Positions 2,219 through 60,208 of a stretch of 64,000 nt of DNA are shown in pieces; within the stretch, counting starts at the first letter, position 1; each line of letters begins with the position of its first letter. The notes under the pieces are model-generated. The model saw only the letters and a program-made list of their open reading frames with translations, did no database searches and was not told the DNA's origin. The stretch covers positions 5,065-69,064 of the IMG/VR virus record IMGVR_UViG_3300010391_000120, one strand, 5' to 3'. The DNA comes from a virus. Made by a program: the position numbers and the translations under genes.

Positions 2219-3328
2219 ATGCCTCTAAAGGAATTCATAGAAAAGTCAAAAAAAGCTCACGGCGACAAATATGATTACTCCAAATCAAATTATGTTAATA
2301 AAAATACAAAGATAGAAATAATTTGTAAAATTCATGGATCTTTTTTTCAAATACCAAGACAACATTATCGTGGTAATAATTGTCCAAAATGTTCCCATAA
2401 ATCATTAGATAAGAATTCTTTCATTTTAAAATCTCAAAAAATTCATGAAAATAAGTTTGATTATTCAGATGTAGTTTATAATAAAATTACAGAAAAAATA
2501 AAGATACAATGTAATAATTGTAATTCATTTTTTTATCAAACTCCAGACAATCATCTACGAGGTCATGGATGTCCTTATTGTAATAAATATGGAATATTAA
2601 CTAAAGAAATATTTATTAAAAAAGCAATAAAAAAATATAAAGATAGATTTAACTATTCTTCAGTTGAATTTGTAAATGGAAAGACAAAAGTAAAAATTAA
2701 ATGTAATGTATGTAATTCTATTTTAAATCATACACCTATAAATCATTTAATGAGAGGCGGATGCAAAACGTGCGCTTATAATCAAAAAAGAGATTCTAAA
2801 GAGAATTTTATTATAAAAGCAAATAAAATTCATAATAACCATTATATTTACAATAAAATAATTTATAAATCTAATTGTCAAAAAATTGAAATAATTTGTC
2901 CAAAACACGGAGAATTTTGGCAAACTCCAAATAGTCATTTACAACAAAAGGCTGGGTGTCCAAAATGTGGAAAAAGAATATCTAAACAAGAGGAAAATTT
3001 TTTAAATTTTCTTAAAATACCCAAAAGACAATTATATATAAATGGATTTTATTTTGATGGTTATGATCCTGAAACAAATACTATTTATGAATATTTAGGG
3101 GATTATTGGCATGGAAATCCCAAATGCTATAAAAAAGAAGATTTAAATGAAATCACTCATAAAACTTTTGGTGAATTATATAATGAAACTGGTAAAAGAT
3201 TAAAAAAATTAAAAGAAAATGGTTATAATATAAAATATGTATGGGAAGAAGATTGGCAAAAATTTATAAAAAATAATCAATGTATAGAAAATCCTATAAA
3301 AGAATTTAATATAGGTGATTTAATATGA
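2219..3328 (+). CDS. Putative homing endonuclease (tandem Zn-ribbon repeats + C-terminal Vsr-like/PD-(D/E)XK domain)
   Basis: Repeats of HGDKYDYS..Y..KIEIIC..HG.F.Q.P..H..G..CPKC; C-terminal DGYD...IYEYLGDYWHGNP...YVWEEDW. Confidence 0.8.
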   Translation: MPLKEFIEKSKKAHGDKYDYSKSNYVNKNTKIEIICKIHGSFFQIPRQHYRGNNCPKCSHKSLDKNSFILKSQKIHENKFDYSDVVYNKITEKIKIQCNNCNSFFYQTPDNHLRGHGCPYCNKYGILTKEIFIKKAIKKYKDRFNYSSVEFVNGKTKVKIKCNVCNSILNHTPINHLMRGGCKTCAYNQKRDSKENFIIKANKIHNNHYIYNKIIYKSNCQKIEIICPKHGEFWQTPNSHLQQKAGCPKCGKRISKQEENFLNFLKIPKRQLYINGFYFDGYDPETNTIYEYLGDYWHGNPKCYKKEDLNEITHKTFGELYNETGKRLKKLKENGYNIKYVWEEDWQKFIKNNQCIENPIKEFNIGDLI

Positions 3329-4461
3329 GTGATTATGATAAAAATGAAGGATTAAGTTTTTCTGATGTTTTTAATGATGATCAAATATCCGCGGAACAAC
3401 GCCCTCCCGAAATGCTCAGACCAATGGAGGAAACCGATGTCCCCATCCAGGCTAAAAACCTTTTTGCGGGACTTTGGGAAAGCGACTTGCTTACCGAGAC
3501 TCATCTTCAGGATCTCTTCCACGCAACAGGTGAGTCCAATCTACTGCAAATACTTAAGGATGATTCCTTAAAACTTGCTTTTGCTGGCGGAACCGAAGCT
3601 GATTTATTCTACAATAAAGGTTATCAATTCTTCTTGTCCACAATGAGACAGAAGTATGGTAATTACGCTAGAGATATTGGTAAAGAAACAGGTTACATCA
3701 AATATAATGTTATAATTCATCTTGATGGTAGTGCTTTGACTGCTGCTGGATTTAAAGTATTTCCTATTGATTATTGGAGTCATGGGCCCGAATATTCTGA
3801 GCAAGAAGAACGAGTGGTTTCTAATAAAGATGAAATAACTCCTCTTAAAAAGTTCATAAAAGATGTTCATGTATATATTTCTACAGATTTAAAACATCAA
3901 CCAACTATAGAACGAATTCATGAAATTAGTAATATAGCTCCATCTAAAGGGATTAAAGTATATTTCTATAAACCACAAGATGTTCAGTATTTTAAAGCGC
4001 AAAGAACCGAAAAAGCCGTAACTGATGTAAATAAAATCCTACCTCCAGCACAATTGTCCCCAGATGATATAGAACACAAGGAATGGATAAAAACTCATTG
4101 TGGTAGGCATGATAGAGATAAATCTACATATCTTCACTCTTTTATGAGAATATATAACCACGATTATTCTCAGGTTGAGAAATTTCCTGATAGTAGTGTT
4201 ATGAAATGGCTTCTATGGTATCCCCATGATGCTATATCTCAATTATTTTGTGATGCTCATAACTACAAACCCAAACACATTTCTGTATTCCGTGATATTG
4301 TGGCGGCAATTAAAAAAGAAGGATTAAAAACATTTAGAGAACTTATAGAGTTGGTAATGAAACGAGAGAAAGAAAGATATAAAAAACAGCAAGAATTGGA
4401 GGATTTAAAAGAAATACGAGAGTATAAAAGACAAGTTGAAGATATTATGAAGACGAAATGA
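3325..4461 (+). CDS. Putative ADP-ribosyltransferase-fold protein with acidic N-terminal leader
   Basis: Motifs LFHAT, FLSTMR and EQEER in ART-like H-S-E order, following a leader ending LLTE. Confidence 0.4.
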   Translation: MSDYDKNEGLSFSDVFNDDQISAEQRPPEMLRPMEETDVPIQAKNLFAGLWESDLLTETHLQDLFHATGESNLLQILKDDSLKLAFAGGTEADLFYNKGYQFFLSTMRQKYGNYARDIGKETGYIKYNVIIHLDGSALTAAGFKVFPIDYWSHGPEYSEQEERVVSNKDEITPLKKFIKDVHVYISTDLKHQPTIERIHEISNIAPSKGIKVYFYKPQDVQYFKAQRTEKAVTDVNKILPPAQLSPDDIEHKEWIKTHCGRHDRDKSTYLHSFMRIYNHDYSQVEKFPDSSVMKWLLWYPHDAISQLFCDAHNYKPKHISVFRDIVAAIKKEGLKTFRELIELVMKREKERYKKQQELEDLKEIREYKRQVEDIMKTK

Positions 4462-4487
4462 TTGCCGTCTAATATTTATATACATAG

Positions 4488-4916
4488 ATGAAACCTGAAA
4501 AGAAAGAGGAATTTAAACTCAATCTAGCCGAGTTATTTAAGCATCTTCAGGAGGAGCTTAAATTAAGATCGGTTCCTAAATTATTTTTAGTGGAAGATCA
4601 AAAAAATGCTGATAAAATATTAGGAAAAACAGGTTATTATGATCCATCTAAAAGAGAAATTCATTTATTTATAACTGATCGTCATCCGAAGGATATACTT
4701 CGTAGCTTTAGCCACGAATGCGTCCATCATTGGGACCATGAAAGAGGAAAATTAGATAATTCTAATAACACTGGTCATGACCCCATGTATGCTCAAAATA
4801 ATAAAGAACTAAGGGAAGCTGAAAAAAGGGCCTACATGCTTGGAAACCTGTGCTTTCGCGATTGGGAAGATTATAAAAAAGAAAAAGATAGAAAATCTGG
4901 TAAAAAAGGTGTATAA
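4488..4916 (+). CDS. Zincin-like metallopeptidase (HExxH)
   Basis: TGYYDP...I.LFITDRHPKDILRSFSHECVHH and downstream EAE; TATTTATA at 4473-4480. Confidence 0.7.
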   Translation: MKPEKKEEFKLNLAELFKHLQEELKLRSVPKLFLVEDQKNADKILGKTGYYDPSKREIHLFITDRHPKDILRSFSHECVHHWDHERGKLDNSNNTGHDPMYAQNNKELREAEKRAYMLGNLCFRDWEDYKKEKDRKSGKKGV

Positions 4917-4922
4917 TATTTT

Positions 4923-6038
4923 ATGATAAGAATATCAAAAGAAAAATTTATACAAAAATGTAATAAAATACATAAAAGTAAATATGATTATTCTTTATCT
5001 GAATATGTAAATAATAAAACAAAATTAAAAATAATATGCCCCATTCACGGAGAATTTTTAATGAGACCCGATTCTCATTTAAAAACTTCAGGATGCAAAA
5101 AGTGTTCTCAATTTAGTAGAAGATATACAAAAAATGAATTTATAATAGAAGCTAATAATATTCATAATAATAAATATGATTATTCATTGGTTGAATATAA
5201 AACCAATAAAATTTCGGTTAAAATAATTTGTATAAAACACGGAGAGTTTTTAATGAGACCTGATTCTCATTTAAATGGTCAGGGATGTAAATGGTGTGGA
5301 GTAGAAAAACGTTCAGTAGAATGTATGAAATCTACCAAATCATTTATAGATGAATGTGTAATCATTCACGGAAAAAAATTTGATTATTCAACTGTAGTTT
5401 ATTTAGGACCGAATGAAAAAATAAAAATAAAATGTAATAAATGTAATTATATATTTGAACAAACTTCTGGTAATCATTTATATAATGAGCAAGGGTGTCC
5501 AAAATGCTTTAACAATCTCAAAATGACAAATGAATTATTCAAAGAAAAGGCAGAAAAAATTCATAAAAATAATCTATATGATTATTCTTTAGTTAATTAT
5601 ATAAACACTTCAACTCCCGTATTTATAAAATGTAATAAATGCAATAACATTTTTAAACAAAAACCAAATGATCATTTAGGTGGACACGGGTGTTCTAAAT
5701 GTTTTCATATTATTAGTAAAAATGAAAGTAAATTTTTAGATTATTTAAATATTGAAAATAGACAAGAATACGTAAAACCATATAGAGTTGATGGTATAAA
5801 GGATAATGTTATTTATGAATTTCTCGGAGATTATTGGCATGGAAATCCTGAAAAATATAATCCAAATGATATTAACAAAAGATCTAAAAAAACATTTGGC
5901 GAATTATATAGTAGAACTGTGGACAAATTTTTCAAACTAAAAAATGGTGGATATTCTATAAAATATATCTGGGAATCGGATTGGAATAATTTTAAAAAAG
6001 GAAATTCCATTTTTCCAAATATAAAGGAGTTCATCTAA
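4923..6038 (+). CDS. Putative homing endonuclease, paralog of 2219..3328
   Basis: Same Zn-ribbon repeats and VDG...IYEFLGDYWHGNP...IWESDW C-terminus. Confidence 0.8.
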   Translation: MIRISKEKFIQKCNKIHKSKYDYSLSEYVNNKTKLKIICPIHGEFLMRPDSHLKTSGCKKCSQFSRRYTKNEFIIEANNIHNNKYDYSLVEYKTNKISVKIICIKHGEFLMRPDSHLNGQGCKWCGVEKRSVECMKSTKSFIDECVIIHGKKFDYSTVVYLGPNEKIKIKCNKCNYIFEQTSGNHLYNEQGCPKCFNNLKMTNELFKEKAEKIHKNNLYDYSLVNYINTSTPVFIKCNKCNNIFKQKPNDHLGGHGCSKCFHIISKNESKFLDYLNIENRQEYVKPYRVDGIKDNVIYEFLGDYWHGNPEKYNPNDINKRSKKTFGELYSRTVDKFFKLKNGGYSIKYIWESDWNNFKKGNSIFPNIKEFI

Positions 6039-13668: not shown

Positions 13669-14472
13669 ATGGTTATGAAAATACAAAATCAATTCGAGAA
13701 ATTTTGTCCTAAATGTGGCAAATTACAATCTTATTCTCGAATTGATTCTTTCAAATTGGCTATCAAAAATGATAGTATCTGTAATAGTTGTTGTCAAAAG
13801 GGGCACAAAGTTTCTTCCGAAACAAGAGAAAAAATTGGAAATTTTCACAAAGACAAACTCAGATCCAAAGAAACTTGTGAAAAAATGAGTATATCTACAA
13901 AAGGAAGAAAACTTTCTACAGAACATATAGAAAAAATTCGTAAATCATTAACAGGAAGAAAACTATCACAAGATCACATTAAAAATCGAAGTAATTCCCA
14001 AAAAGGAAAGCCATATCCGATAGAAGCGAGAATGAGAAATAGTATATCTATGAAAGGCAGACCCAGTTGGATAAAAGGAAAACATCATACGGAAGAAACA
14101 AAATATAAAATAAGAATTGGTGTAATAAATAATTCAAAAAAGAGAAATATTTTTCCATATAAAAAAAGTTATAATCCAAAAGCTTGTGAATATCTTAATA
14201 AATTAAATGAAAAATTTGGATGGAATTTACAGCACGCAGAAAACGGTGGTGAAATAGAATTATATGGGTATTTTGTTGATGGTTATGATAAAGAAAGAAA
14301 TATAATTATAGAGTATGATGAATGTAATCATAATAGACCAAACAGAAAAGAAAAAGATATAATAAGGCAAAATAATTTAATTGAAAAAATAAATCCTACC
14401 TTATTTTTAAGATACGATGAACAGTGGGACAGATTATATGATTGTAAAACACATTTAGAAGTAAATAAATGA
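13669..14472 (+). CDS. Putative homing endonuclease (NUMOD3 repeats + EDxHD/Vsr-like domain)
   Basis: SSETREKIG, HHTEETKYKI NUMOD3 motifs; WNLQHAENGGE...VDGYDKERNIIIEYDECNH. Confidence 0.8.
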   Translation: MVMKIQNQFEKFCPKCGKLQSYSRIDSFKLAIKNDSICNSCCQKGHKVSSETREKIGNFHKDKLRSKETCEKMSISTKGRKLSTEHIEKIRKSLTGRKLSQDHIKNRSNSQKGKPYPIEARMRNSISMKGRPSWIKGKHHTEETKYKIRIGVINNSKKRNIFPYKKSYNPKACEYLNKLNEKFGWNLQHAENGGEIELYGYFVDGYDKERNIIIEYDECNHNRPNRKEKDIIRQNNLIEKINPTLFLRYDEQWDRLYDCKTHLEVNK

Positions 14473-16523: not shown

Positions 16524-17189
16524 TTAATCGTCGATGGTTAAAAGGAACGGCTTCCATGTAGGATGTTTTACTTCCCTGATCATTGCTGACAGAGGAATTG
16601 GAGGCGGAGCCTTCGGTTGACGAATTAGTTTAAGTCCAACTTCATTATTGAATCTATTACCCTTTTCAGAGTTGACTTTCTTATGAGTAATAACTAAGTT
16701 TTCCCATGTATCTCTACCACCCTTTGATTGAGGTATAACATGATCTATTGTTCCATCTTCACGACGAAGTTTTACACCTTTATATTGATCAATACCATTA
16801 TCACGAATCCAAATGGCTTCTTTTGATGGTTTACCGCGAAATGTTTTTTTAGGCATCTTATTGAAGTTTTTAGCAATAAGAACTGTCGGTACACGCATTT
16901 TTTTCAGTCCATTAGAATAATGAACTGCATCATCTTCTTCCCATGAACGAATTGGGAGCTTTAACCACTCATCCCAATTACAAGGAATGATTGATATTGG
17001 ATTTCCTGATGGGGCACCATATTCGTCTAATATATAATTGCCTTGGTCATCCTTAACATAATCAAAGTCGAGGGCTGTAGCAGAAAGACCTGCAGCTAAA
17101 TCAACAATAGCCCGACCTACGGAACTGAATCCCACAGGTTGCCATGCTTTATTTAACTTTAGGACTATTACTTTGTTAATAATGTTCAT
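16524..17189 (-). CDS. HNH endonuclease (McrA-like family)
   Basis: VLKLNKAWQP N-terminus; IWIRD...QY...TIDHVIPQSKGGRDTWENLV...N.EKGN. Confidence 0.85.
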   Translation of the reverse strand: MNIINKVIVLKLNKAWQPVGFSSVGRAIVDLAAGLSATALDFDYVKDDQGNYILDEYGAPSGNPISIIPCNWDEWLKLPIRSWEEDDAVHYSNGLKKMRVPTVLIAKNFNKMPKKTFRGKPSKEAIWIRDNGIDQYKGVKLRREDGTIDHVIPQSKGGRDTWENLVITHKKVNSEKGNRFNNEVGLKLIRQPKAPPPIPLSAMIREVKHPTWKPFLLTIDD

Positions 17190-20474: not shown

Positions 20475-22076
20475 TTATCCATTCTGATCACCAGCCTCCA
20501 TTATTCTAAGAAATTCATCAATTTCAGCAGCTACCTCTCCGATAGCTTCGTGTGCAGGAACATAAGCATTTTCGGCAAATAAGTTTTGAGCTATATTAGC
20601 TTCGGCCACCACTGGTATATTTTCCACAGGTTCTGCAGCTTGGCCAAACAAGTGATCAAAGTGTTGAGCTAAGACTGCATCGTCAGCAGGTCGCCGTCTT
20701 TCATTTTCAATTTCACGCATAATTCCTTGAGCCCTATCCAATATACGATTATCATAATGAGCCTCGCCTTCCCCAACCCTACGATTTATTCCATCTTCGT
20801 CACGCAATCTTCGCATTGCTTCATTGGCATCTGCTCTGTGTTGATCCTGACGATGCATCTCAACTTCAACTCGGCCTATATTTTGGTTATTGTTAGGTTG
20901 AATACCATCATCAAGGTCAATAGCATTCTGTAAACGATTACCATAAACCACTCGGGCATCATCTACTCTAGCTTGAAATGCCGCGTATGCTTCTTGAGCA
21001 GGTTGTTGAAAAAGTTGATCTTCAGCAACTGCTTCTACAACTCCAGGCATCGGAATACCAGCATGTTGAATTGCCGGCGCCACTTCTGGGGCAGGAGGTA
21101 ATCCACGTATAAGCGGATCCCATTCTCTCCACTCCCCAGCAGGAGCGGGTCTCCCCCCTATTGCAACACCACGATTAAAATTTCTTCTGCGTGGCCTTGG
21201 TTCATCAACAGCATCCAGATGTTGAAGTGCTATAGGTTGTTCAACAAGTGCTGGTCTTATAGCTTGTTCATCTACTGGTCTATTGCGATTGACATAACCA
21301 TAACCCTCCCAATTACCATCAGTCTCTACTTCTGCCCTTACACACGGAACAAACAGAGGATCATGGTTAAATGGAACCTTCATCTTTTCACAACTCTTAT
21401 CATCTTCATCATAATCGCCTGACTTGGATTTTGCCCAACAATCCGAATTGTTAAGAGAATAGGCAAGAAATTTGGTTTGATCACTAGAAACAGTAAAACC
21501 ATTGCTCAAATACTTATGAAGATGCCTCATTAAAGATTTGTATTTAGAAATACTCCAAAATACAATTTGTTTCTTGGATAAATCATCTACAGAAGTTTTT
21601 CCTGTAAGAAAGTTTTTTCCATCCCAACCAAATTGGCACACGGTAAAATCAAAACTATTCAATAACTTGGCGAGTGAACTATAATGAGCCACGTTAATGA
21701 ATTGAATATCTACAGTCTTATTAAACTTTTTGCCTTCGTTTACATGATACTTGTAAAGCGTATTCCACTTCTTTTTAGTTTCGCTGATAACATTTTTAAC
21801 ATATGGAAAACTTCTCATTTTTATGGTAAGTTCCTCAAATTGCTTTTTGCTTTTAAAAAATACATCAATGTCGCATTTTTCCAGTGGTTCCTTATTAAAG
21901 GTTCTCCATAGAGAGCCCCCAGCAATCCACGGACCCCCCTCGCTTAAGGTTGGAAAATGATGAAGAACTCTAAATAAATCGGATTCCGCAATGTGCGGAT
22001 AATCCGTTAAGTTTATAGTAGCCATTGCTGGTTCTGGATCCTTCCAAGAAATACTTGTTGATATAGTATTACTCAT
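20475..22076 (-). CDS. Pol-beta superfamily nucleotidyltransferase (CCA/poly(A) polymerase head-like) with long disordered C-terminal tail
   Basis: WIAGGSL...DIDVFF and FDFTVCQFGWDG motifs; last ~300 aa low complexity. Confidence 0.75.
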   Translation of the reverse strand: MSNTISTSISWKDPEPAMATINLTDYPHIAESDLFRVLHHFPTLSEGGPWIAGGSLWRTFNKEPLEKCDIDVFFKSKKQFEELTIKMRSFPYVKNVISETKKKWNTLYKYHVNEGKKFNKTVDIQFINVAHYSSLAKLLNSFDFTVCQFGWDGKNFLTGKTSVDDLSKKQIVFWSISKYKSLMRHLHKYLSNGFTVSSDQTKFLAYSLNNSDCWAKSKSGDYDEDDKSCEKMKVPFNHDPLFVPCVRAEVETDGNWEGYGYVNRNRPVDEQAIRPALVEQPIALQHLDAVDEPRPRRRNFNRGVAIGGRPAPAGEWREWDPLIRGLPPAPEVAPAIQHAGIPMPGVVEAVAEDQLFQQPAQEAYAAFQARVDDARVVYGNRLQNAIDLDDGIQPNNNQNIGRVEVEMHRQDQHRADANEAMRRLRDEDGINRRVGEGEAHYDNRILDRAQGIMREIENERRRPADDAVLAQHFDHLFGQAAEPVENIPVVAEANIAQNLFAENAYVPAHEAIGEVAAEIDEFLRIMEAGDQNG

Positions 22077-22482
22077 TTGCGTTCTTTTTTTGATGTTTCT
22101 TATAATTTTCTAACAACTTTTTTATATTTTCAGCTCCTACTGGGTTCATGCTATGAACCTGATAATCGGGCAGTGGTAATTTCTTTCCTTTACAATATTC
22201 TATTAAATATAAAGCACAATGATAACCCGTTTTTTCCTCATATTTGTCATATGGTATCTTATCATATTTTGGCAGTGGTTCCTCTTGTTGTAAAGCTTCT
22301 AATATATCAAATATTGCGTAGTGTTCCGGCCCGAGATCATGATCAAAACTTATAAAATCAGGTAAACCACGTTCCTTTATAGTTTTTACAAACTCTTTAT
22401 AGTTCCTAACCACGGTCCATGTCCTAATATCTTTTAGAAAGGTATTAGGAACCCGGAAATCATCAAGAAATAGCGAATACAT
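22069..22482 (-). CDS. Cyclic-phosphate-processing receiver (cREC)-like domain protein
   Basis: LFLDD.R.P, ISFDHDLG, TGY.CA.YL, VHSMNPVGA.NI. Confidence 0.8.
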   Translation of the reverse strand: MYSLFLDDFRVPNTFLKDIRTWTVVRNYKEFVKTIKERGLPDFISFDHDLGPEHYAIFDILEALQQEEPLPKYDKIPYDKYEEKTGYHCALYLIEYCKGKKLPLPDYQVHSMNPVGAENIKKLLENYKKHQKKNANE

Positions 22483-23239
22483 AATGAAAATCTATTCCAT
22501 TTTTAAGTTTTCTATAAATTGTACCTCTATCTACATTTTTATCATCGGCAGCTTGTTGTATTGATTTCCATGTTTTAATAATATTTCCATTTTTATCAAA
22601 CTGAGCAATAGGTTTCCATCCTTTAGGAAGTTTTGACTTAAACTTATCTATATCCTCAACATAACACCATTGATAACCTTTTATATAATTTGTTTTTTTA
22701 CGGCAAGCCATAGAAATATTTTGTCTTGATATTCCCATAACATTTTCTACTTCTAAGCATGATCCAAATCTTTTGATTATATTTCCATCAATGTCTATCT
22801 GATAAACCGGTTTATATTGAGATTCGCTTATTTTTCGTTTGGTTTCTTTTGTTTGTTTATTCCCCCTGTGAGAACCGCTTAATCTTTTCAATGTCTCTTT
22901 TGAAGCTTTACATCCAAAACGGGGTAAATCTGCTATCGGAGACATATTATATCCATATTTTCTATTATAACTTTGATAACGATCCATCCAGCATTGCTCT
23001 CTATCTATCAAATGCGGTATATCAATAAACTCCAATACTTCAAATTCAAATACATCAATTCCATGTTTATTAAATGACGATTGTAAATGTTTGTTGGGGT
23101 GTTGATTTCTTCGCAAACGATTTCTATGAGCCTTCCATCGCTTCCTAATATTTACAGAACTTCCGACATATAATTTTTTATTTAACTTATTTGTAATTTT
23201 ATAGATTCCGCTTTTGTTTAATTCGCTTTTAGTTCTCAT
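22463..23239 (-). CDS. GIY-YIG homing endonuclease with NUMOD repeats
   Basis: SGIYKITN...YVGSS...RW..H...H.NKHLQ.SFNKHG; NUMOD3/NUMOD1-like C-terminus. Confidence 0.9.
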   Translation of the reverse strand: MRTKSELNKSGIYKITNKLNKKLYVGSSVNIRKRWKAHRNRLRRNQHPNKHLQSSFNKHGIDVFEFEVLEFIDIPHLIDREQCWMDRYQSYNRKYGYNMSPIADLPRFGCKASKETLKRLSGSHRGNKQTKETKRKISESQYKPVYQIDIDGNIIKRFGSCLEVENVMGISRQNISMACRKKTNYIKGYQWCYVEDIDKFKSKLPKGWKPIAQFDKNGNIIKTWKSIQQAADDKNVDRGTIYRKLKNGIDFHYVFAIS

Positions 23240-31778: not shown

Positions 31779-32591
31779 TTATTTTGTCAAGGGGGTGGAA
31801 TAAATCTGTGTAAGTTTTTTATGATTTTCACTATACCGCCAAAATTCGGCAGGATTTAAAATTTCTATGATTTGTTGTTGACGGATTTCATCTTTCTTTT
31901 TTTGAGAAGGTTTTTCGTGTTTAGGCTCGTCATATTCTACAATAATATTTTTATTTTTATCATAACTATCTAAAAAATATCCATATATTTCTATTTCCCC
32001 ACCATTAAGAGCGTGTTGTAGATTCCATCCTCTTTCTTTATTAAGTTTATCAAAGTATTCGCAGGCTTTTGGATTATAATTAGTATAGGGTTTTATTCTT
32101 TTTTCTTTTATTCTTTTTATTGCCGACAATCTCATTTTATATTTTGATTCGGCCGATGGTTTTATTCCTATGTGAGATTTAGATATTTTCTTTTTTGTTT
32201 CTTCTGTGTGAGATTTGCCATACCAAAAAGATTTGTTTCCTGTTTTTCCATAATTAGGATTATTTTTTCCACTACGATTTTTTCCATACCAAGGATTTTT
32301 TTCTCCTGATATTAGACCTTTATGAGAAATAGATAACTTTAATTTTGTTTCTTTTGTGTGATTTATACCTATATGAGAAATTCCAATTTTTCTTTTATGC
32401 TCTTCCGATTTTAATTTTCCTTTTTTAGAACAACTTCCACAAAGATTTCCTCTTTCTATAGATCTATCTAAATTATATTTTCGGCTATATGATTTTTCTT
32501 TCCCACATTTAGAACATTTATTTATCCATTTCTTTTTGTTTGTAGTATTTTCTAAGTTTTTCTGCTCTAATTCTTTTATTATGTCGTTCAT
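31779..32591 (-). CDS. Putative homing endonuclease (NUMOD3 + EDxHD/Vsr-like), paralog of 13669..14472
   Basis: SEEHKRKIG, HTEETKKKIS, GEKNPWYGK; WNLQHALNGGE...IIVEYDEPKH. Confidence 0.8.
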   Translation of the reverse strand: MNDIIKELEQKNLENTTNKKKWINKCSKCGKEKSYSRKYNLDRSIERGNLCGSCSKKGKLKSEEHKRKIGISHIGINHTKETKLKLSISHKGLISGEKNPWYGKNRSGKNNPNYGKTGNKSFWYGKSHTEETKKKISKSHIGIKPSAESKYKMRLSAIKRIKEKRIKPYTNYNPKACEYFDKLNKERGWNLQHALNGGEIEIYGYFLDSYDKNKNIIVEYDEPKHEKPSQKKKDEIRQQQIIEILNPAEFWRYSENHKKLTQIYSTPLTK

Positions 32592-35971: not shown

Positions 35972-37846
35972 TTAGATTTCTTCTTTTACAACGGGGGCCT
36001 TACCAAATCCAACACCAGCTCTAAAACCTTTCGGACCTTTCTTGTAATCACTACTGCTGATTTTAACATCCGTCATTTCACGAAGCCTCTCAACGGCATC
36101 AAAGAATGGCATTTCAAAGCACATAACTGATATTACTAATTCAGCACAAGCAGCAAATGAAAATCCTTCTGTAGCATTTACCCATTTCTTTAACTCATGT
36201 CCGTCAATTTTGAGTTTCTTTTCAAAATACATTTTACGAACCTTATCAGGCGGCATGTCAATTTCCATTACTCTATCAAATCGCCTTGGGCGAGCAATAA
36301 GTCGTGGATCAAGCTTTTCTGGATAGTTTGTTGTATTATGTTGAAACAATCCTTCCCCAATAAATGTTTTGGTTGTTGTACTAAGAGCTACGACTGGCCC
36401 ATTGCCAATTTTTTTCACTGAAACTACTTTTTCATACATACAATTTCCACCTATCCTAACATCTTCCCAAGCATCTTTTAATCGTGGATGATTTAATAAT
36501 CTTATCGGTCTGAGAGATCCAAGAAGTCTAAGACTTCCCCATCTTCCACCATTTATTTGTAAATCGTGAATTTGTTTGTAAAATTCAGATTTTGGAACTA
36601 ATCCGCCTCCACTACATCTTTCTTTTTTTCTTTTATAAGTAGCAAAATCAAAGTTTCGATTTTTTAATAATGATTCCATAACACCGATTAAAGGTCCTTC
36701 CGATTGAGTCCAACAGGCTTTAAATGTGTGTCTTTTGGATGATGATACCGAAATATTTAGTGATCCTTCAGCGTCAAACTGACCAGCTAAATATCCACCT
36801 TCATATGAAGTATCCAATTTCCACGGCTTTCCCGATGAAACAATACAATCTCCTATCTCCATCTCATCAACATATTTCCACACATGAGATTTATTTTTTC
36901 CTCGTTTTATTAGAAAGGGATGTTTTTCGCTTACTATAATATTTGTTCCAGAATCAGTTATTATTTGAAATCTAGGTTTTGTTATTATTCCAGTAGATGT
37001 TACCTTCGCCGTTCTATATTTACGTCCTAATCGTTCTTTAACATGCCATCCACATATAGCATTTTCATCAAAAGCAATAAGTTCATCTCCAACTTTTAAG
37101 TCTCCTGCTGGCTGCCAAGTTAAATCGGTTTTTAGAATTAATGTTTCTGGTGCTGGGCACGCTATATTTAATACCTTATCAATTTGATTTTCTCCGTCGA
37201 GTAAAGTTAAAATTTCGTCCTCCCCGTATTCGTCAACAATCGCATCAATATCTTCAAATAAACACACTACAGGTCTGTCTGGCTCTACCTTGCGGTAATT
37301 TGCTAATCCATCATTAAATACGCTTGGATGGTTGGTGCATTGAAATACTAATCCATCCGAATTGACAATATCGGCAATAATCTGTTGAACCAAACAAGTT
37401 TTACCTGATCCAGCAGGTCCGTGTAATAGATACCCACGGCGATGTAAGAAACCGTGAAACTTAAACTTGTCGCCTTTGTTCCAGAATATGGTTATCTCTT
37501 TTAGAATCTTATCTGAAACCGAATCAGGGAACCTAAGTAAATCATCTACACAAATAGTCTTACGCTCGAATACAATGCCATGGTTCTGACTCGCATAGAT
37601 ATTATAAATACCTTTCTCTAATTTAGGAAAGGTAAATGAAACTGGTTTGTAGGTATTAGGTCCACAAATTGACCATTGAACTAAAGCAGTTATATCGCCT
37701 GTTTTCCCATTTTTAGGATGGGCAGGGTCGCCATATCCTTGATTAAAAGTTCCTGCTGGTGGTGGGGTTTTACTTTCTTTAGCAGAAAGATCGGAAACAT
37801 TTTTACCGAATTTTTCTAAGCCGCTATCAGAATCAATTATCTTCAT
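35972..37846 (-). CDS. AAA+ ATPase (BCS1-like) containing an intein
   Basis: RRGYLLHGPAGSGKT, LFEDID, LTLLDG, (A)TTNYPEKLDPRLIARPRRFD. Confidence 0.9.
   Translation of the reverse strand: MKIIDSDSGLEKFGKNVSDLSAKESKTPPPAGTFNQGYGDPAHPKNGKTGDITALVQWSICGPNTYKPVSFTFPKLEKGIYNIYASQNHGIVFERKTICVDDLLRFPDSVSDKILKEITIFWNKGDKFKFHGFLHRRGYLLHGPAGSGKTCLVQQIIADIVNSDGLVFQCTNHPSVFNDGLANYRKVEPDRPVVCLFEDIDAIVDEYGEDEILTLLDGENQIDKVLNIACPAPETLILKTDLTWQPAGDLKVGDELIAFDENAICGWHVKERLGRKYRTAKVTSTGIITKPRFQIITDSGTNIIVSEKHPFLIKRGKNKSHVWKYVDEMEIGDCIVSSGKPWKLDTSYEGGYLAGQFDAEGSLNISVSSSKRHTFKACWTQSEGPLIGVMESLLKNRNFDFATYKRKKERCSGGGLVPKSEFYKQIHDLQINGGRWGSLRLLGSLRPIRLLNHPRLKDAWEDVRIGGNCMYEKVVSVKKIGNGPVVALSTTTKTFIGEGLFQHNTTNYPEKLDPRLIARPRRFDRVMEIDMPPDKVRKMYFEKKLKIDGHELKKWVNATEGFSFAACAELVISVMCFEMPFFDAVERLREMTDVKISSSDYKKGPKGFRAGVGFGKAPVVKEEI
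36335..37159 (-). mobile_element. Intein (275 aa) with LAGLIDADG-type endonuclease
   Basis: Begins C(PAPETLILK...DLKVGDEL), block B VSEKHPF, YLAGQFDAEGS, ends FIGEGLFQHN before +1 Thr; excision restores LNIA-TTNYP. Confidence 0.92.
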
Positions 37847-40575: not shown

Positions 40576-40651
40576 GAGGCAGTAACTCAGTTGGTAGAGT
40601 GCCATCCTTCCAAGTTGGCTGTCGTCGGTTCGAGCCCGATCTGCCTCTCCA
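40576..40651 (+). tRNA. tRNA-Gly(TCC)
   Basis: Cloverleaf: GAGGCAG/CTGCCTC acceptor, loop CT-TCC-AA, TTCGA, encoded CCA. Confidence 0.93.
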
Positions 40652-40656
40652 TTTAA

Positions 40657-40730
40657 GCGGGATTGGTTTAGTGGTAGAACAGGAAATTGCCAATTTTCAG
40701 GCGGGATTTCGATTATCCCATCCCGCACCA
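40657..40730 (+). tRNA. tRNA-Gly(GCC)
   Basis: GCGGGAT/ATCCCGC acceptor, loop TT-GCC-AA, TTCGA, CCA. Confidence 0.9.
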
Positions 40731-40961: not shown

Positions 40962-40989
40962 TTGACATTTTCTAAACCTGTGATATACT
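40962..40989 (+). promoter_or_regulatory. Early promoter upstream of tRNA-Cys
   Basis: TTGACA-16-(TGA)TATACT. Confidence 0.8.
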
Positions 40990-41015
40990 TATTGTGAGAG
41001 TGAGAGATTTTAGAT

Positions 41016-41091: not shown

Positions 41092-41100
41092 GATTTGAAT

Positions 41101-54897: not shown

Positions 54898-55791
54898 ATG
54901 GCTGGCGAATTAGATTTTACGATGGGTGCTGACCCTGAGTTTTTATGTGTGGATCGTCGCACAATAATTGACAGTGGCGCTTACACAAACACCAACAACG
55001 AATTAGGCAGCGATAATAATGGTGTGTTGTTTGAAGTGAGGCCCAGCCCTTCTACTGACCCAGTAGATATAGTCAATAACATGCACGACATTTTCGCTCG
55101 TTGGTTGACCGCCAACAAAGATTTTACCAAATTGAAGTGGTTAGCAGGTTCTCATTATGCTGACCAAAACATAGGCGGACATATTCATTTTGGTATCAAA
55201 CCAGCAAAAATTCCAACCGCTACAATCGCTAATGTGCTTGATAACTATATCGGATCTATTACGATGCTGCTTGAGTCCCGTAACCAAGGATTGAGGCGGC
55301 GTCAAGGTAACTATGGCCGAATGGGGGATACTCGGCCGCAGACTTGGGGATTTGAGTATCGCACTTGTGCTAGCTGGATTACTTCTCCATATGTTTCAGC
55401 CGGCGTCCTTTGTTTGGCAAAAACGGTGGTTTGGGAATTTGCTAACAATACTCGTTTCACTCCACGGCAGTTTATGACCGCTGAGGATTTTTCCACGATG
55501 AATACTGATAAGGTTAGAGCGGAGTTTCCGGAATTGTGGAAAGATATTACTTCAATGAAGTTATATCAGCAATACAAGGTCTATATTGACCTGCTCTATT
55601 TCTTAATCAAAAAGAATTACACTTGGTTTCCTAATTCAAGCATGAAAGAAGCTTGGGGTTTGGTTGACTTAACCAAAGCATATGAAGATAAAATCAAGTT
55701 AAATGTAATTTGGGAACGCTTTAAGCAAGAGATTGACACTAATGGTTGTGCCATAACCGTTCCTGTGGAACGGCCACATCGTTATCGGTAA
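54898..55791 (+). CDS. Phage phiEco32-like COOH-NH2 ligase (type 2)
   Basis: TMGADPEF, FEVRPSP, IGGHIHFG, RR..NYG..GD.R.Q.WGFEYRT..SW. Confidence 0.9.
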   Translation: MAGELDFTMGADPEFLCVDRRTIIDSGAYTNTNNELGSDNNGVLFEVRPSPSTDPVDIVNNMHDIFARWLTANKDFTKLKWLAGSHYADQNIGGHIHFGIKPAKIPTATIANVLDNYIGSITMLLESRNQGLRRRQGNYGRMGDTRPQTWGFEYRTCASWITSPYVSAGVLCLAKTVVWEFANNTRFTPRQFMTAEDFSTMNTDKVRAEFPELWKDITSMKLYQQYKVYIDLLYFLIKKNYTWFPNSSMKEAWGLVDLTKAYEDKIKLNVIWERFKQEIDTNGCAITVPVERPHRYR

Positions 55792-55993
55792 AATATATGA
55801 AAATGAAAAAATGGAAAGTTTCTTATACATCCTGGCGAGAAACTTGGTCTGGCCATGATCAAAATGACGGCGACTGCGAAGAAATTGTTAAAGCTAAAAC
55901 CCGAAAAGGTGCTATTAGTAAAGTAGAGAAAAAAAACTTTAGTGGAAATTGGTCCCATAGTATTTGGGGAACTAACTGTAATGCTGAGGAAAT

Positions 55994-56473
55994 ATGATTG
56001 AATTTAGCGAAAAAGATTTTCAATTAGCAAAGATTCGCCGGGAATCTAAGTTATTCAACCTTCAAACCGGCCAGCCATTTCGGGTGTGTGGATTGAGGAC
56101 GAAGGGTAATTCACTAATTCATATATCATATAACTATGATACAGTGGGCGAGAATTTTGATGAACATATGGCCATGCTTGTTGATTTCTGTAAGAATAAT
56201 AACATTGAACTTAAATGGGAATCCGGTGCCGGCACCCCGAAAGTCTGTATCGGATTACGCCGTGACTTGAGGGACCATATTCTTCTTTGTTCGGCAATTC
56301 TTCAAACTATTGTTTATTGCCTTGAAGGGCAACTGAACATAAATGGCAAAGAGAGGATAAATGGTATTCCTGCTTTTCCTAACTCCCGAGGCGTTGTAAA
56401 GAAGCAAAGGACTGAGTTGCCTGTGGTTGAGCGTGAAGATTATGACGATGCTGATGGCGACGACAATCGTTAA
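55994..56473 (+). CDS. Hypothetical protein with acidic C-terminus containing LPVVERE
   Basis: 159-aa ORF between the ligase and the GATase. Confidence 0.6.
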   Translation: MIEFSEKDFQLAKIRRESKLFNLQTGQPFRVCGLRTKGNSLIHISYNYDTVGENFDEHMAMLVDFCKNNNIELKWESGAGTPKVCIGLRRDLRDHILLCSAILQTIVYCLEGQLNINGKERINGIPAFPNSRGVVKKQRTELPVVEREDYDDADGDDNR

Positions 56474-56512
56474 TTTAATTATGACTAACAAAAATATGAA
56501 AGGAATGCTATA

Positions 56513-57325
56513 ATGTGCCGGATGGCTGCCTTCCCCCCAAACTTCCCCCGTGCTGAAGCACTCGAAATATTGAAAAATTTCGAGAATAACAACACGGATG
56601 GAACTGGAGCTGCTTGGATTGAAGGGAAAAAGTTTGTGGTTGAAAGATACCCAAAAAGTTTGACCAAAGTGATTCGCAAGCATCGTTTTCTTCACCATAT
56701 GCCCCATCCGGGTTGGACCATAGCTCACCTAAGAGCGGCTTCAAAAGGTGATGTTTCTTTGGTAAATACTCACCCGTTTGTAGCTGGAAAGTTTGCAGTT
56801 TGCCATAATGGAACTTTTAGCGAATTTAAGATTGTCAAACTTGCTTTGGGAAATAGGGTTAAGTTTGAGGGAGAAACTGATACCGAAGCGGCTGCCCATC
56901 TTATCTCTGTGGCCGGACCTAAACGGTTTTCAGAAACAATAGACTTTTCTGGTGTCTTTCTCGCCCTAAATATTCGCGGCGATTTATGGGCCATTAAGAC
57001 AAGTGGCGACTTGGAAATCCAAGCATTACCAAAGGATAAGGTGGTTCTTTGCTCAAAGTTTAATCCCAGTGAATATCCTGGGTCAGACGAAGCACAAGTC
57101 GGTTGGTATCATATGGACAATGAAGGAAGATATATCAAACACAAGAAAGTGCGTGATAACGCTGTCACCTATCATCGTCCTACTTCTGCTTGTGGAACTT
57201 TCGGACCTGGAAGTAATCCGCCTTGGGCTCCTTCTAATGTTAGTTGTCATACCATTCGCGATCCTGATGGTAGAGCTCTTGCCCATCGTGGTATTTGGCC
57301 TTATAACACTTATGAGGGGGACTAA
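56513..57325 (+). CDS. Class II (Ntn) glutamine amidotransferase
   Basis: N-terminal MCRM, N.DGTG, AHLRAAS.G, NTHPF, HNGT, GETDTE. Confidence 0.92.
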   Translation: MCRMAAFPPNFPRAEALEILKNFENNNTDGTGAAWIEGKKFVVERYPKSLTKVIRKHRFLHHMPHPGWTIAHLRAASKGDVSLVNTHPFVAGKFAVCHNGTFSEFKIVKLALGNRVKFEGETDTEAAAHLISVAGPKRFSETIDFSGVFLALNIRGDLWAIKTSGDLEIQALPKDKVVLCSKFNPSEYPGSDEAQVGWYHMDNEGRYIKHKKVRDNAVTYHRPTSACGTFGPGSNPPWAPSNVSCHTIRDPDGRALAHRGIWPYNTYEGD

Positions 57326-57562: not shown

Positions 57563-57889
57563 ATGAATCAAGATCAACTAATTCGGTTCCTGATGGACAA
57601 CATTGATGCTGAGGCATTAGCAGAAGCTAATCGTCAAGGATCAACAATCATGTATTTCGCTGGTGTCGCTCAGCGTTTTCCAAATACAAATCCAGCGGCA
57701 AATCCACCCAGGCGAGTTGCTCAAGTTGCTCCTGCGAATCCTGTGGCTCGCATGAATGTTCGGCAACCTGCTCCTCAAAACGAAGAAATCAATGAAGCCC
57801 TTCCTGCTCCGGCACTGGCTCGTGCGCCAGGTCGACGCAATCCTCGGCCAGGTAACGAGAACGATACCGTTCGCGTGGGCCGCCTGTAA
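57563..57889 (+). CDS. Lys-free, Pro/Ala/Arg/Asn-rich disordered protein
   Basis: 108 aa with no K or C; leaderless start 6 nt after the -10 of promoter 57529-57556. Confidence 0.7.
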   Translation: MNQDQLIRFLMDNIDAEALAEANRQGSTIMYFAGVAQRFPNTNPAANPPRRVAQVAPANPVARMNVRQPAPQNEEINEALPAPALARAPGRRNPRPGNENDTVRVGRL

Positions 57890-57926: not shown

Positions 57927-58697
57927 ATGGACTACCTATTATACCATGCCAACAGCTCAGTCACGGGACGAGAGCTTGTTCGACAACTCGGAATCAGCGG
58001 CGGTGCAGACAGCCCTGATCGTCGGCCCCAAAGATTAGTGCGATGGGGGAATCGTTCGGAAATCCGCTTCAACGCAGTTGGCGGAGTGCTGAACAAGAAA
58101 TCAGCTCTTAATGATGCCTCGAACAAAGGCCGTTCATTGGAGTTATTGACCGCAGCGGGAATCAATGTTCCCCCTGCTGCTACTCGGTTTGACGGCGAGT
58201 TGCTTGTTGGACGCACTGAAACTCATGTTGGCGGGGAAGGGTTTTTCCTCGTCACCAGCCAGCGTGATTTTGAGTTGGCTCGGGATCACTGCCATTGCAC
58301 CCACTTTATGAAATACATTCCTACTCAGCGGGAGTATCGGGTCCATGTGTTTCAAGGGCGAGTTATCGGCTCGGGTGAGAAGCTGATGGGCGAGAACGCC
58401 ACCAGCCTTCATATTCGCAATGTGGGCACGGGCTGGACATTCCGCTATAACCAAGCGGAGCGCATCCCCAATGACATTCAGAATATTGCCACCGAGGCAA
58501 TGCAGGCTCTTGGCCTGGACTTCGGTGCCGTAGATGTTCTGAAATCGGTAAACAATAACTTTTACGTGTTGGAAGTCAACACGGCGCCAGGGTTAGTCGC
58601 AGTTGAAGGTAGGGGGCGGGGCCGGGAAGTCACGGATGGCCCTATGTTCCAGTCTTATCTGGATGCCTTCCGCAATTGGTTGGAAACTGCCCGTTAA
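57927..58697 (+). CDS. ATP-grasp ligase (RimK/phiEco32-like)
   Basis: VRWG, NK...L..L...G..VP, H.GG.G, EYRVHVF, ALGLDFGAVD, LEVNTAPGL; probable start ATG 57927. Confidence 0.9.
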   Translation: MDYLLYHANSSVTGRELVRQLGISGGADSPDRRPQRLVRWGNRSEIRFNAVGGVLNKKSALNDASNKGRSLELLTAAGINVPPAATRFDGELLVGRTETHVGGEGFFLVTSQRDFELARDHCHCTHFMKYIPTQREYRVHVFQGRVIGSGEKLMGENATSLHIRNVGTGWTFRYNQAERIPNDIQNIATEAMQALGLDFGAVDVLKSVNNNFYVLEVNTAPGLVAVEGRGRGREVTDGPMFQSYLDAFRNWLETAR

Positions 58698-58743: not shown

Positions 58744-59476
58744 CTCTCTTTATATGATTACTCCAATTTCAAGACCGATAAAGCCTGCTCTTCCTGAAAT
58801 ACAATACATTCCATTTGTGTCTGTAACGGAATATGGCAATCATGGTGGCAGGGTCAAGGAGAGTCATTACAAGAAATATGGGCATTATTGCCAAGTAGTG
58901 ATGGTTTCTCGTAGCGATATTGAAGGTTTCAATAAAACTGGATTTAGAATGTTTGGTATTATGCCAGGAACTTTAGGTAGGCCCTGGACCGGTGACCCTG
59001 AAGCAAGGCGGAAAGATTTGCGGAAGTTTGCTGGTTATCCTCAATTCAATTTTGGAATGTATTACGATTTGGATTATCTGCTTTTCATGGATGATGTTAT
59101 TGAATATAACCATCACCAGCGAAAGTTTGAGGACATTCGTTCAGCAAGAGATTTCGTAAAGCAACACAAACATATATGAAATACACAATTCCAGTAGTCA
59201 CCCGCACTCAAGATAATGGTGATGGCGGTTATACTACCAATGCCTATAATACGGAAGATGAACTAATTGCTGACCATCCTAAATCAATGGAATGGGATAG
59301 TAAGGCAGAGAAAGAAGTGCCCGTGGCATTGTCTCAGGAAAAGCGGGACGCCATTTTGAATGAGGATGATCCCTATGAAAACGGCTATATTGGTCGGGAT
59401 GAAATCGTTATTGAAATCGTGGATGGTGTTGCGAAACTTTCTAAACCGCTTAGTTTCCACGCCGGCCAATAAGTCA

Positions 59477-60208
59477 ATGATTAGAATATTAACAATAGGA
59501 AGCGAAAGAAAGTTTGTTGACCGTCTTGGTTATACGACTTCTTGCTATTTAACTAATAGTGTTGAATCATATAATCGGGATGTAGTCATTCGATTTGGAA
59601 ATAGCCAAGCGGCATACAACCATGATCGTTTACCGACTGACTTTAGAAATGTCTTAAATCCAGCAAAAGCTATTTCTTCTAACATTGACAAAATAAATAC
59701 CAGAAGGAAATTGTCAGCAGTTGTTTCTACACCCAAAACATTCTACAAATATACTCCTAATCGTGGTGTGTTTGTTATTCGCCATCGTGGTCACGCTTCC
59801 GGTAGTGGTTTTCAAGTGAGAGAATCGAATGGAGTATCTATTCGCCTTCGTGAAGGTGGCGAATATGCCAGTGAATATGTAAGAGGCGATGAATACCGAG
59901 TCTGGTTTGTTGGTAATAGGACAATGAGGGCATTAAGATACTCTGCTACTGGTATTACTTCACGCTTTCCATGTAGAAGTAAGTGGTCTTATGAATATTG
60001 CGATAATGTGCCTACCGATTTACATAATCAAACTCTATTAGGAGCAAGGACTTTAGGACTTGATTTTGGTGCTGCTGATGTTATACGGAGTAATGGAAGA
60101 TGGTATTTTTTGGAATATGATACAGCACCAAGTATTGATACGGCAACGCTACGAAGGTTTTTCAAGAATAATTTTGATAGGCTAATTCGTGAAAGATTTA
60201 GGATTTAG
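59477..60208 (+). CDS. Second ATP-grasp ligase
   Basis: VIRFGN, DK, H.SGSG, EYRVW, LGLDFGAADV, LEYDTAPSI; probable start ATG 59477. Confidence 0.85.
   Translation: MIRILTIGSERKFVDRLGYTTSCYLTNSVESYNRDVVIRFGNSQAAYNHDRLPTDFRNVLNPAKAISSNIDKINTRRKLSAVVSTPKTFYKYTPNRGVFVIRHRGHASGSGFQVRESNGVSIRLREGGEYASEYVRGDEYRVWFVGNRTMRALRYSATGITSRFPCRSKWSYEYCDNVPTDLHNQTLLGARTLGLDFGAADVIRSNGRWYFLEYDTAPSIDTATLRRFFKNNFDRLIRERFRI

Follow-up and report, generated by a model that had tools for sequence, protein, structure and literature searches.

A phage nucleotidyltransferase with a 281-residue arm free of lysine, serine, threonine and cysteine

The 64,000-nucleotide stretch of viral DNA described here (the window; positions 5,065 to 69,064 of IMG/VR record IMGVR_UViG_3300010391_000120) encodes a 533-residue protein with an N-terminal head predicted to be a nucleotidyltransferase (NTase) of the Gad2 family and a C-terminal tail, or arm, of 281 residues without a single Lys, Ser, Thr or Cys. 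This residue desert is real and under strong purifying selection acting on the protein, and the ban on Lys is specific to the protein, not a property of the phage proteome. Among related proteins the exclusion forms a hierarchy—Lys always, Ser and Cys often, and Thr only in the nearest relatives of the window protein. We tentatively favor the explanation that the arm is kept free of acyl-acceptor residues owing to carboxylate-activating ligases of the phage itself, to which we give a probability of about 0.35.

The source contig is a 69-kb fragment with a CheckV completeness of 20%. It is syntenic with IMG/VR records of giant phages of 189-365 kb, and a complete relative of 365 kb and 33% GC is referred to here as G002.

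The residue desert and its cause

The last Ser, Lys, Cys and Thr of the protein are at positions 228, 233, 245 and 252, respectively, and residues 253-533 (281 residues; nt 20478-21320), which end in ...AGDQNG, contain none of the four. These counts agree with the original prediction, made from the sequence alone, of a 281-residue tail after Thr252 with the last Lys at 233. The head (residues 1-252) has 29 Lys, 26 Ser, 16 Thr, 5 Cys and 5 Arg, and the composition of the tail includes 40 Ala, 29 Arg, 28 Glu, 22 Asp, 21 Gly, 21 Val, 20 Asn, 20 Pro and 19 Gln. The Lys-free stretch on its own extends over 300 residues (234-533), or 56% of the 533-residue protein. Lysine deserts have been delimited as continuous Lys-free regions of at least 150 residues or of at least 50% of the protein (PMC13696103), and the NTase tail is long enough by this measure; its lack of Lys is also conserved in evolution beyond what composition bias would give.

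Lys, Ser, Thr and Cys together account for 22.9% of the 12,938 residues in window open reading frames (ORFs) of at least 150 residues, from which the probability of 281 residues without any of them is ~10^-32; the next-longest runs lacking all four, among the 110 window ORFs of at least 80 residues, are 59 and 50 residues long. The GC content is higher in the tail than in the head (44.7% vs 35.1%), the excess coming from first codon positions (71% GC), and the GC content of the tail at third codon positions (GC3) is 23%. As many as 96 of the 281 tail codons are one substitution away from a Lys codon and 208 of the 281 from a codon for one of the four residues, and 23% of the non-synonymous single-base neighbors of tail codons encode Lys, Ser, Thr or Cys. 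A cause in GC or base composition is ruled out by the GC3 value and the 208 codons one step away, and the same GC3 value, with the probability given above, bears out the claim of the original prediction that chance is very unlikely in an AT-rich genome.

A nucleotide-level cause is likewise ruled out, as the missing codons are common in the other two frames of the same DNA: counts in the coding frame and the other two are 0, 23 and 12 for AAA/AAG, 0, 11 and 26 for ACN, 0, 4 and 52 for Ser codons, and 0, 6 and 24 for TGY. Because these codons are missing in frame only, the constraint acts on the translated protein, and this answers, as far as sequence can, the objection that the tail might not be translated. 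A Lys-poor design for translation under depletion of tRNA-Lys was also rejected, the head having 11.5% Lys without a shift to Arg.

The sole close homologue, P0002, is 44% identical in the tail and has 340 residues with no Lys, Ser or Thr and with a single Cys. Searches with the tail alone returned two near-length proteins, the window protein itself and P0002, and no stand-alone shorter form of the tail was found among 117 candidates.

The ban across the NTase family

An exhaustive HMMER search yielded 1,180 relatives of the NTase at E≤1e-3, and the best 150 of these 1,180 form the family survey; most of them are NTase-only proteins of ~200 residues. Clade compositions were counted on 35 representatives that are mutually less than 50% identical, the conservation alignment and profile were made from 30 family members, and 80 loci were surveyed in IMG/VR.

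In a maximum-likelihood tree of NTase domains the tail-bearing NTases group together as a single clade, with support 93/94. Within it, tails are long, rich in Arg and poor in Ser in clade A (12 rows, P0001-P0013), and shorter and poor in Arg in clade B (26 rows). Tail composition is 0.9% Ser, 0.2% Cys, 5.1% Thr and 8.4% Arg in clade A, and 8.5% Ser, 10.6% Thr, 0.6% Cys and 4.3% Arg in clade B together with P0036. Summed over the 35 representatives, the sequence after each last Lys comes to 5,973 residues with 376 Arg, and the heads have 700 Lys in 7,116 residues. Counted instead from 30 residues beyond the NTase domain, which avoids circularity, 33 proteins have 6 Lys over a total of 5,015 residues, each of the six at +31 to +36, and among the extension-bearing members of the closest group Lys is absent from the extension in every one. 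As a control, nine more distant members with extensions were counted, and these have 36 Lys in 464 residues. Nine of the 80 IMG/VR loci (5 distinct sequences) have Lys-free tails of 85-174 residues; in the remaining 71 the last Lys is followed by no more than 72 residues.

Tails that are free of or poor in Ser and nonetheless rich in Thr occur in both clades (0 Ser and 23 Thr, 0 and 26, 0 and 27, 1 and 28, 0 and 17, 0 and 13, 0 and 13). Binomial probabilities for the Ser depletion range from 4e-3 to 3e-10 in the 11 tails tested, the Thr-rich ones having 0-2 Ser. Thr is nearly absent solely in P0001 and P0002, and is low in P0004, P0005 and P0008. The four-residue desert of the original prediction thus holds clade-wide as a Lys ban, but its Ser, Thr and Cys part is lineage-specific, as the Ser and Thr contents of clade B make plain.

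The arm of these uncultured giant phages is mostly disordered and acidic, with Arg as the sole source of its positive charge. It is variable in length and of low complexity, and its C-terminal residue differs among homologues (G, A, E, F, W, R, I and others); the final residues of the window protein, ...AGDQNG, are not conserved. The marks of a ubiquitin-like or Pup-like tag—a conserved C-terminal Gly, GG or GGQ, and a beta-grasp or Pup-like form—are absent, and the structural model of the tail consists of disorder and helices. Given this variation at the C-terminus, a Gly-ended tag is ruled out, and with it the earlier suggestion that the tail is itself conjugated via its final Gly.

Clade B loci have a Zn-ribbon gene upstream of the NTase gene, and a membrane protein followed by a ~685-residue gene downstream. 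The tailed NTase lies just upstream of the ~685-residue gene in the clade B relatives L001, L004, L006 and L007, where by eye we take that gene to be NadE-like (glutamine-dependent NAD synthetase).

Disorder-like segments elsewhere in the proteome

Low-hydrophobicity segments of at least 50 residues in G002 have 530 Lys in 5,424 residues (9.8%), and those of the window contig have 222 in 1,827 (12.2%), the NTase tail included. With Lys-rich disorder-like segments elsewhere, a pressure on all exposed phage chains is unlikely, and a proteome-wide trait was rejected as the cause on the same figures. In G002 the remaining long stretches without Lys belong to Ser/Thr-rich repeats of fibre proteins, which are also without Arg, and to one extremely acidic run of 192 residues.

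This acidic run, which contains Arg and has 74 Asp and Glu, is part of a 530-residue protein encoded next to the structural genes of G002 (352431-354023, in L105). In the window, a 715-residue protein (48-2195, plus strand) has a 77-residue Pro/Asp-rich stretch (residues 455-531) without Lys, Ser or Cys, which by a rough estimate is beyond chance for a 69-kb contig (P ~8e-4); the protein is homologous to a 615-residue protein of G002 (43% identity), and most of the stretch is without a counterpart there, the main BLASTP alignment ending at query residue 476.

Organization of the NTase gene and protein

The features of the gene and its upstream neighbor, all on the minus strand, are as follows; structural assignments are from AlphaFold (AF2) models and their predicted local distance difference test (pLDDT) scores.

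20475..22076, minus: whole gene, predicted 533-residue Gad2-family nucleotidyltransferase with a Lys-free tail (ORF and residue counts, hhalign)
21432..22034, minus: NTase catalytic domain, residues 15-215 (AF2 pLDDT >90, conserved columns, Foldseek, hhalign)
21321..21431, minus: Lys-rich acidic linker, residues 216-252 (...AKSKSGDYDEDDKSCEKMK...), with the final Lys, Ser, Cys and Thr of the protein (residue positions)
20478..21320, minus: tail without Lys, Ser, Thr or Cys, residues 253-533, net charge -21 (composition, codon counts)
21006..21320, minus: disordered part of the tail, residues 253-357 (pLDDT <50)
21294-21311, minus: tail motif WEGYGY, recurring in P0002-P0008
21180-21197, minus: Arg-rich tail motif RPRRRN, recurring in P0002-P0008
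21120-21137, minus: tail motif GEWREW, recurring in P0002-P0008
21045-21062, minus: tail motif AGIPMP, recurring in P0002-P0008
20646..21005, minus: helical module of the tail, residues 358-477, with a conserved core at residues 419-459 (AlphaFold model, alignment)
20496..20555, minus: C-terminal amphipathic helix, residues 508-527 (AlphaFold model)
22069..22482, minus: upstream gene with a cREC (cyclic-phosphate processing) receiver domain, PF20274, E 6e-23 (Pfam)

The full-length model has pLDDT >90 over residues 15-215 and <50 over 220-350, and there is a second disordered stretch between the helical module (helices at 358-387, 397-426, 438-460 and 463-477) and the helix at 508-527. The module is conserved in P0002, P0003 and P0154. 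Residues 410-460 reach a pLDDT of ~89 in the full-length model but 68-77 when the tail is folded alone, and the tail modeled by itself has a mean pLDDT of 51.

The last 8 nt of the cREC gene are also the first 8 nt of the NTase gene, and because of this overlap the two are likely to be translationally coupled. The cREC gene was rejected as a conserved neighbor of the NTase, being directly adjacent in the window only: it is 28 kb from the NTase in G002, and in 5 of the 80 IMG/VR loci, whose NTases are all short-form (tail-less), the distance is 3-5 kb, with cREC upstream. Directly upstream of the cREC-NTase pair is ORF 22463-23239, which by eye may be GIY-YIG-like.

Relationship of the head to Gad2 and CCA-adding enzymes

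The head contains the motifs GGS (residues 53-55), DIDVFF (69-74) and FDFTVCQ (142-148), so that the pol-beta-type catalytic motifs hG[GS], DxD and a third acidic residue are all present (D69, D71 and D143). Across the 30 aligned sequences G53, D71 and D143 are invariant and G54 and D69 are conserved in at least 90%; Ser55 of the GGS motif is seen in alignment rows, outside the conservation list. The 30-member profile was compared by hhalign with Gad2 of Bacillus phage SPbetaL7, the validated reference (OQ921347.1 109563-110765, annotated "Gad2" and reached via phi3T and SPbetaL7), giving Prob 98.2% and E 5.3e-14 over 141 columns at 29% identity (NTase residues 46-202 vs Gad2 residues 24-168). 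Both proteins are phage-borne and share the AGG[SA], DxD and FDFTVC motifs, but they part after the head: the alignment ends at Gad2 residue 168, and instead of a Lys-rich C-terminal half like that of Gad2—whose last 232 residues have 26 Lys (11%), 11 Ser, 10 Thr and 3 Cys and a longest Lys-free run of 23 residues—the window protein has its 281-residue arm.

From these sequence comparisons the window protein is assigned to the Gad2 family of NTases, with an intact acidic triad and a putative anti-Gabija role. The assignment to PF26128 comes from precomputed annotation, ESM Atlas clusters naming PF26128 as Gad2, Gabija anti-defence 2; a Pfam search, with a library that lacks PF26128, found no family at E≤1 for the full-length protein or at E≤0.1 for the head. 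Gad2 is described as a 400-residue predicted NTase that is toxic when expressed and is required by SPbetaL7 against Gabija (10.1101/2023.05.01.538930), and according to a 2026 review its mechanism is unknown (PMC12904381). A search of the Gad2 literature, exclusive of the supplementary homologue tables, turned up no account of tails like these.

Foldseek comparison of the head with PDB structures gave CCA-adding or tRNA-processing enzymes as the top eight matches (E 3.9e-5 to 1e-4), and overall class II CCA-adding and A-adding enzymes, bacterial poly(A) polymerase and TENT5 (E 4e-5 to 1e-3); the closest structures among class II CCA-adding, A-adding and poly(A) polymerase heads are 5hc9, 3h37, 4wbz, 1vfg and 3aql (E 4e-5 to 8e-4). 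The window protein differs from class II CCA-adding enzymes in lacking their tRNA-holding neck, body and tail domains, identity is ~15%, there is no Pfam match to PolyA_pol (PF01743), and after residue 215 the model shows disorder or isolated helices. The hhalign result, the fold match and the motifs all agree with the original prediction that the N-terminal domain is a nucleotidyltransferase.

Sequence databases gave few other relatives. Among 50,697 phage records tblastn found a single weak match, in Klebsiella phage 05F01 (E 7e-4), and megablast found no DNA match to the NTase gene; a tblastn search from the distant member P0112 yielded 15 records, none from a Bacillus SPbeta phage. A contig scan of genomes found one distant NTase, in an Opitutaceae metagenome-assembled genome, which is uninformative on the host. 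Searches with the NTase protein returned just 2la3_A (E 0.33) from PDB sequences and only weak NTase or unknown families from PHROGs.

ORF 57563 and the amide-ligase cluster

The original prediction also pointed to a likeness between the tail and ORF 57563, which lies in an amide-ligase cluster on the opposite strand. The cluster comprises the following features.

54898..57325, plus: cluster core overall, syntenic in L085, L086, L110 and L111
54898-55791, plus: phiEco32-like COOH-NH2 ligase (PF14395)
55994-56473, plus: ORF without an assigned family, in the cluster core
56513-57325, plus: class II glutamine amidotransferase
57563..57889, plus: ORF 57563, 108 residues with 0 Lys, 0 Cys, 1 Ser and 13 Arg (composition, homologues)
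57927..58697, plus: RimK-like ATP-grasp ligase directly downstream of ORF 57563, the ATG at 57927 being the likely true start
59360..60208, plus: second ATP-grasp-like gene, a paralogue of 57927 (the type is present in G002 and G003)

ORF 57563 and 15 homologues (45-74% identity) make up a family of 16 proteins and 1,776 residues, with no Lys, no Cys, 219 Arg, 117 Thr (1-14 each) and 20 Ser (1-3 per protein, mostly one conserved Ser). The likeness in composition therefore extends to the whole family, which has 0 Lys and 0 Cys and, in the window, sits inside the amide-ligase cluster. All have a conserved N-terminal 40 residues, a variable linker rich in Ala, Pro, Arg, Asn and Gln, and a conserved C-terminal D-x-V-x-V. 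A search of IMG/VR gave no relatives for ORF 57563 or for the 715-residue protein noted above. In the window and in 5 of 6 metagenome loci (L109-L114) a 57927-type ATP-grasp gene directly follows the ORF 57563 homologue, the contig of the sixth stopping 40 nt past the match; an amidotransferase gene precedes the homologue in 5 of the 6, the remaining contig offering 198 nt of sequence ahead of the match. ORF 57563 and its ATP-grasp are missing from G002 and G003, where the ligase and the amidotransferase occur with an ATP-grasp of the 59360 type.

Like known ATP-grasp clients, then, ORF 57563 is a small protein encoded beside a RimK-like ATP-grasp enzyme, and its sequence suggests a client, carrier or tag for a ligase, in a family not described before. 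Known clients of ATP-grasp peptide ligases include graspetide precursors, ribosomal protein S6 (with RimK), LysW (with LysX) and tubulin tails; PMC4431377 mentions S6, LysX and tubulin. Structure prediction for a complex of ATP-grasp 57927 with ORF 57563, run without controls, gave scores of 0.00, 0.47 and 0.00, which weigh on neither side of the question of binding. The GC content peaks over the amide-ligase cluster (44-50% at window positions 57001-59000, vs ~33% for the window), and the proteins under this peak have 4-6% Lys and 9-12% Arg, which suggests that the amide-ligase block is of different or more recent origin.

The co-occurrence of tail and ligase, which the original prediction had proposed as a check, was compared across IMG/VR records. 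PF14395 is present in the window and in 4 of 5 records with tailed NTases, the fifth being 30% complete. It is absent from all 10 records in which the NTase has no tail, and four of these 10 have a completeness of at least 90%. The association is confounded by ancestry, however: tailed records that share one NTase-ligase spacing are one syntenic lineage, so that their co-occurrence is not independent evidence. As for ubiquitin-type genes, phage-encoded Prok-JAB and ThiF (E1) were each found in 0 of the 5 related records.

Possible explanations of the desert

Lys, Ser, Thr and Cys, with their amine, hydroxyl and thiol side chains, are the set of residues that accept acyl groups, as the original prediction recognized in calling them conjugation acceptors, and from this we infer that the arm works beside an activated acyl group without capturing it. 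The donor beside the arm would be an activated carboxyl or acyl group that never captures the arm covalently, and because of ORF 57563 we favor as donor the phage's own cluster of COOH-NH2 ligase, amidotransferase and ATP-grasp enzymes. ATP-grasp enzymes generate acyl-phosphates, and in graspetides Lys, Ser or Thr is joined to Asp or Glu within one chain; Lys, Ser or Thr on a flexible chain would attack acyl-phosphates in the same way, giving rings closed by an isopeptide or ester bond. Acceptors would thus be expected to be purged from any client or partner that has to stay linear, or to hand the acyl group on to an outside amine. On this view ORF 57563 would be the main client; the NTase arm would be either another client or a partner protected by its desert. 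Tubulin tails are acidic, disordered and Lys-free, like the NTase arm, and graspetide cores hold the Thr, Ser or Lys acceptors that the arm and ORF 57563 mostly lack. According to a published prediction, ATP-grasp ligases of phages attach peptide tags to proteins (PMC4431377).

Several observations weigh against this explanation. Any physical or genetic link of the arm to a ligase is hypothetical, as is the client role itself: the NTase gene differs from those of ATP-grasp clients, and from ORF 57563, in not being next to an ATP-grasp ligase gene, being ~33 kb from the cluster and on the opposite strand, and NTase and ligase are 28-36 kb apart in G000, G002, G003 and G005. Clade B tails are rich in Ser and Thr, and G002 has a Lys-free tail yet neither ORF 57563 nor its ATP-grasp, so that the ORF 57563 module cannot explain the universal Lys ban. 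The head, with the Lys content given above, leaves the protein as a whole unprotected. Nor is a motif common to the tail and ORF 57563 supported, as they are alike in composition alone: BLASTP of the tail against ORF 57563 gives E 24, and a hidden Markov model of the Arg-rich C-terminal motif of ORF 57563 scores at most 1.4 bits on the 35 NTases.

A wider possibility, which we think unlikely, is that the phage clade runs its own protein-tagging or ligation system on ATP-grasp and carboxylate-amine ligases instead of E1/E2, with ORF 57563 as tag or carrier and the NTase as a component or target adaptor whose arm is never tagged. The universal Lys ban would then track the carboxylate-amine ligase core of all lineages, and the extra ban on Ser and Cys (and Thr) the ATP-grasp and ORF 57563 module; an acceptor-free adaptor arm would follow the same logic as the lysine deserts of eukaryotic ubiquitin ligases. 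Evasion of Lys conjugation by the host, of which the original prediction named an E1/E2-type defense, is similarly improbable. Here the arm would reach or bind the host machine—a Bil system or a Cap2-type system of cyclic oligonucleotide-based anti-phage signaling (CBASS) with ubiquitin-like E1/E2 proteins, or another Lys-modifying defense—and so be kept acceptor-free. The order of exclusion, Lys, then Ser and Cys, then Thr, matches the canonical and non-canonical acceptors of ubiquitin as described in PMC13696103 and PMC6769291, bacterial ubiquitin-like systems are reported to conjugate to phage proteins (10.1101/2023.09.04.556158; 10.1101/2023.09.26.559546), the head belongs by sequence to an anti-defense family, and a desert with lysines clustered N-terminally is found in UBQLN-type proteins (PMC13696103). 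The NTase head is nonetheless Lys-rich, as are the disorder-like regions elsewhere in these phages (10-12% Lys), neither a deubiquitinase nor an E1 of phage origin was found in the five related records, and host evasion leaves the same rule in the small ligase-cluster protein ORF 57563 unexplained.

The remaining explanations are less probable still. Protein hydroxyls are known NTase acceptors, and hydroxyls or amines on a tethered arm could have been purged because the protein's own NTase would nucleotidylate them. That the arm is always fused to an NTase whose catalytic triad is conserved, and that SPbetaL7 Gad2 is toxic when expressed (10.1101/2023.05.01.538930), are consistent with such self-protection; we consider it quite unlikely, as the universal ban falls on Lys and not on hydroxyls (clade B being far from poor in Ser and Thr), Tyr and His are retained throughout the tails, and ORF 57563 follows the same rule without an NTase. 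A role of the disordered arm in RNA binding or in condensates might favor Arg over Lys for non-covalent reasons, which accords with the 8.4% Arg and conserved RPRRRN / RRNRR motif of clade A arms and with a head like that of tRNA 3'-end enzymes, though one without their body and tail domains. Such a preference predicts depletion, however, rather than zero Lys in ~6,000 residues; clade B arms are acidic with just 4.3% Arg and are equally Lys-free, and the Ser and Cys bans are left unexplained, so that this too has a low probability. If exposed disordered chains were attacked by a protease specific for Lys, escape from it would fit a Lys-free part that is disordered or extended on a folded head that retains Lys, but we regard it as very unlikely, given the Lys-rich disorder-like regions elsewhere, the bans on Ser, Cys and Thr that it leaves aside, and the fact that no candidate protease was identified in this analysis. 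Chance, low-complexity expansion or drift in base composition could draw on the low complexity and variable length of the arm and on the Lys-free runs in the Ser/Thr-rich fibre proteins of G002; it is already refuted by the probability, GC3, the 96 codons one step from Lys and the in-frame-only absence, by a ban that spans ~35 representatives less than 50% identical to each other, and by the fact that the G002 fibre runs are without Arg as well.

Other features of the window

A Nudix-domain protein (47533-48453, plus) is encoded near a nicotinamide phosphoribosyltransferase (49108-50640, plus; NAMPT_N and NAPRTase), and the two may form a phage NAD+ salvage or reconstitution pair. Six tRNA genes lie at 40576-42415 on the plus strand (Gly-TCC, Gly-GCC, Cys-GCA, His-GTG, Leu-TAA and Leu-CAA), tRNA-Lys not being among them. 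An AAA-type ATPase gene (35972-37846, minus) is split by an intein (Intein_splicing, residues 289-504), and many homing-endonuclease-like genes (DUF4379 zinc finger, NUMOD3, HNH) are located at 2219-6038, 13669-14472, 16524-17189, 22463-23239 and 31779-32591.

Relation to known lysine deserts and significance

The arm resembles the eukaryotic lysine deserts of ubiquitin-system proteins such as Slx5 and UBQLN1/2 in being a long, conserved, Lys-free disordered region in a protein whose lysines are in the N-terminal domain (PMC13696103; PMC10169902; PMC10665810). It differs from them in belonging to a bacteriophage protein, where no ubiquitin system is known, and in that the ban extends to Ser and Cys and, in the window phage, to Thr. 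The 2026 lysine-desert review discusses a single phage case, that of Mycobacterium phages, for which it names GC bias as another explanation (PMC13696103), and our literature search for Lys-free phage or anti-defense proteins found nothing beyond it. As the genome described here is AT-rich, the GC confound of the Mycobacterium-phage deserts is removed.

Lysine deserts have so far been documented as a phenomenon of the eukaryotic ubiquitin system. A desert in an AT-rich phage, confined to one protein of a Lys-rich proteome and graded from Lys to Lys, Ser and Cys and on to Lys, Ser, Thr and Cys, and conserved over ~35 diverged homologues, is a clean natural experiment on why acyl-acceptor residues must be kept out of a protein, and it sits on what by sequence is a member of the Gad2 anti-defense family. 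ORF 57563, beside its ATP-grasp gene, may offer an experimental handle on the protein-modifying role predicted for phage amidoligase clusters (PMC4431377).

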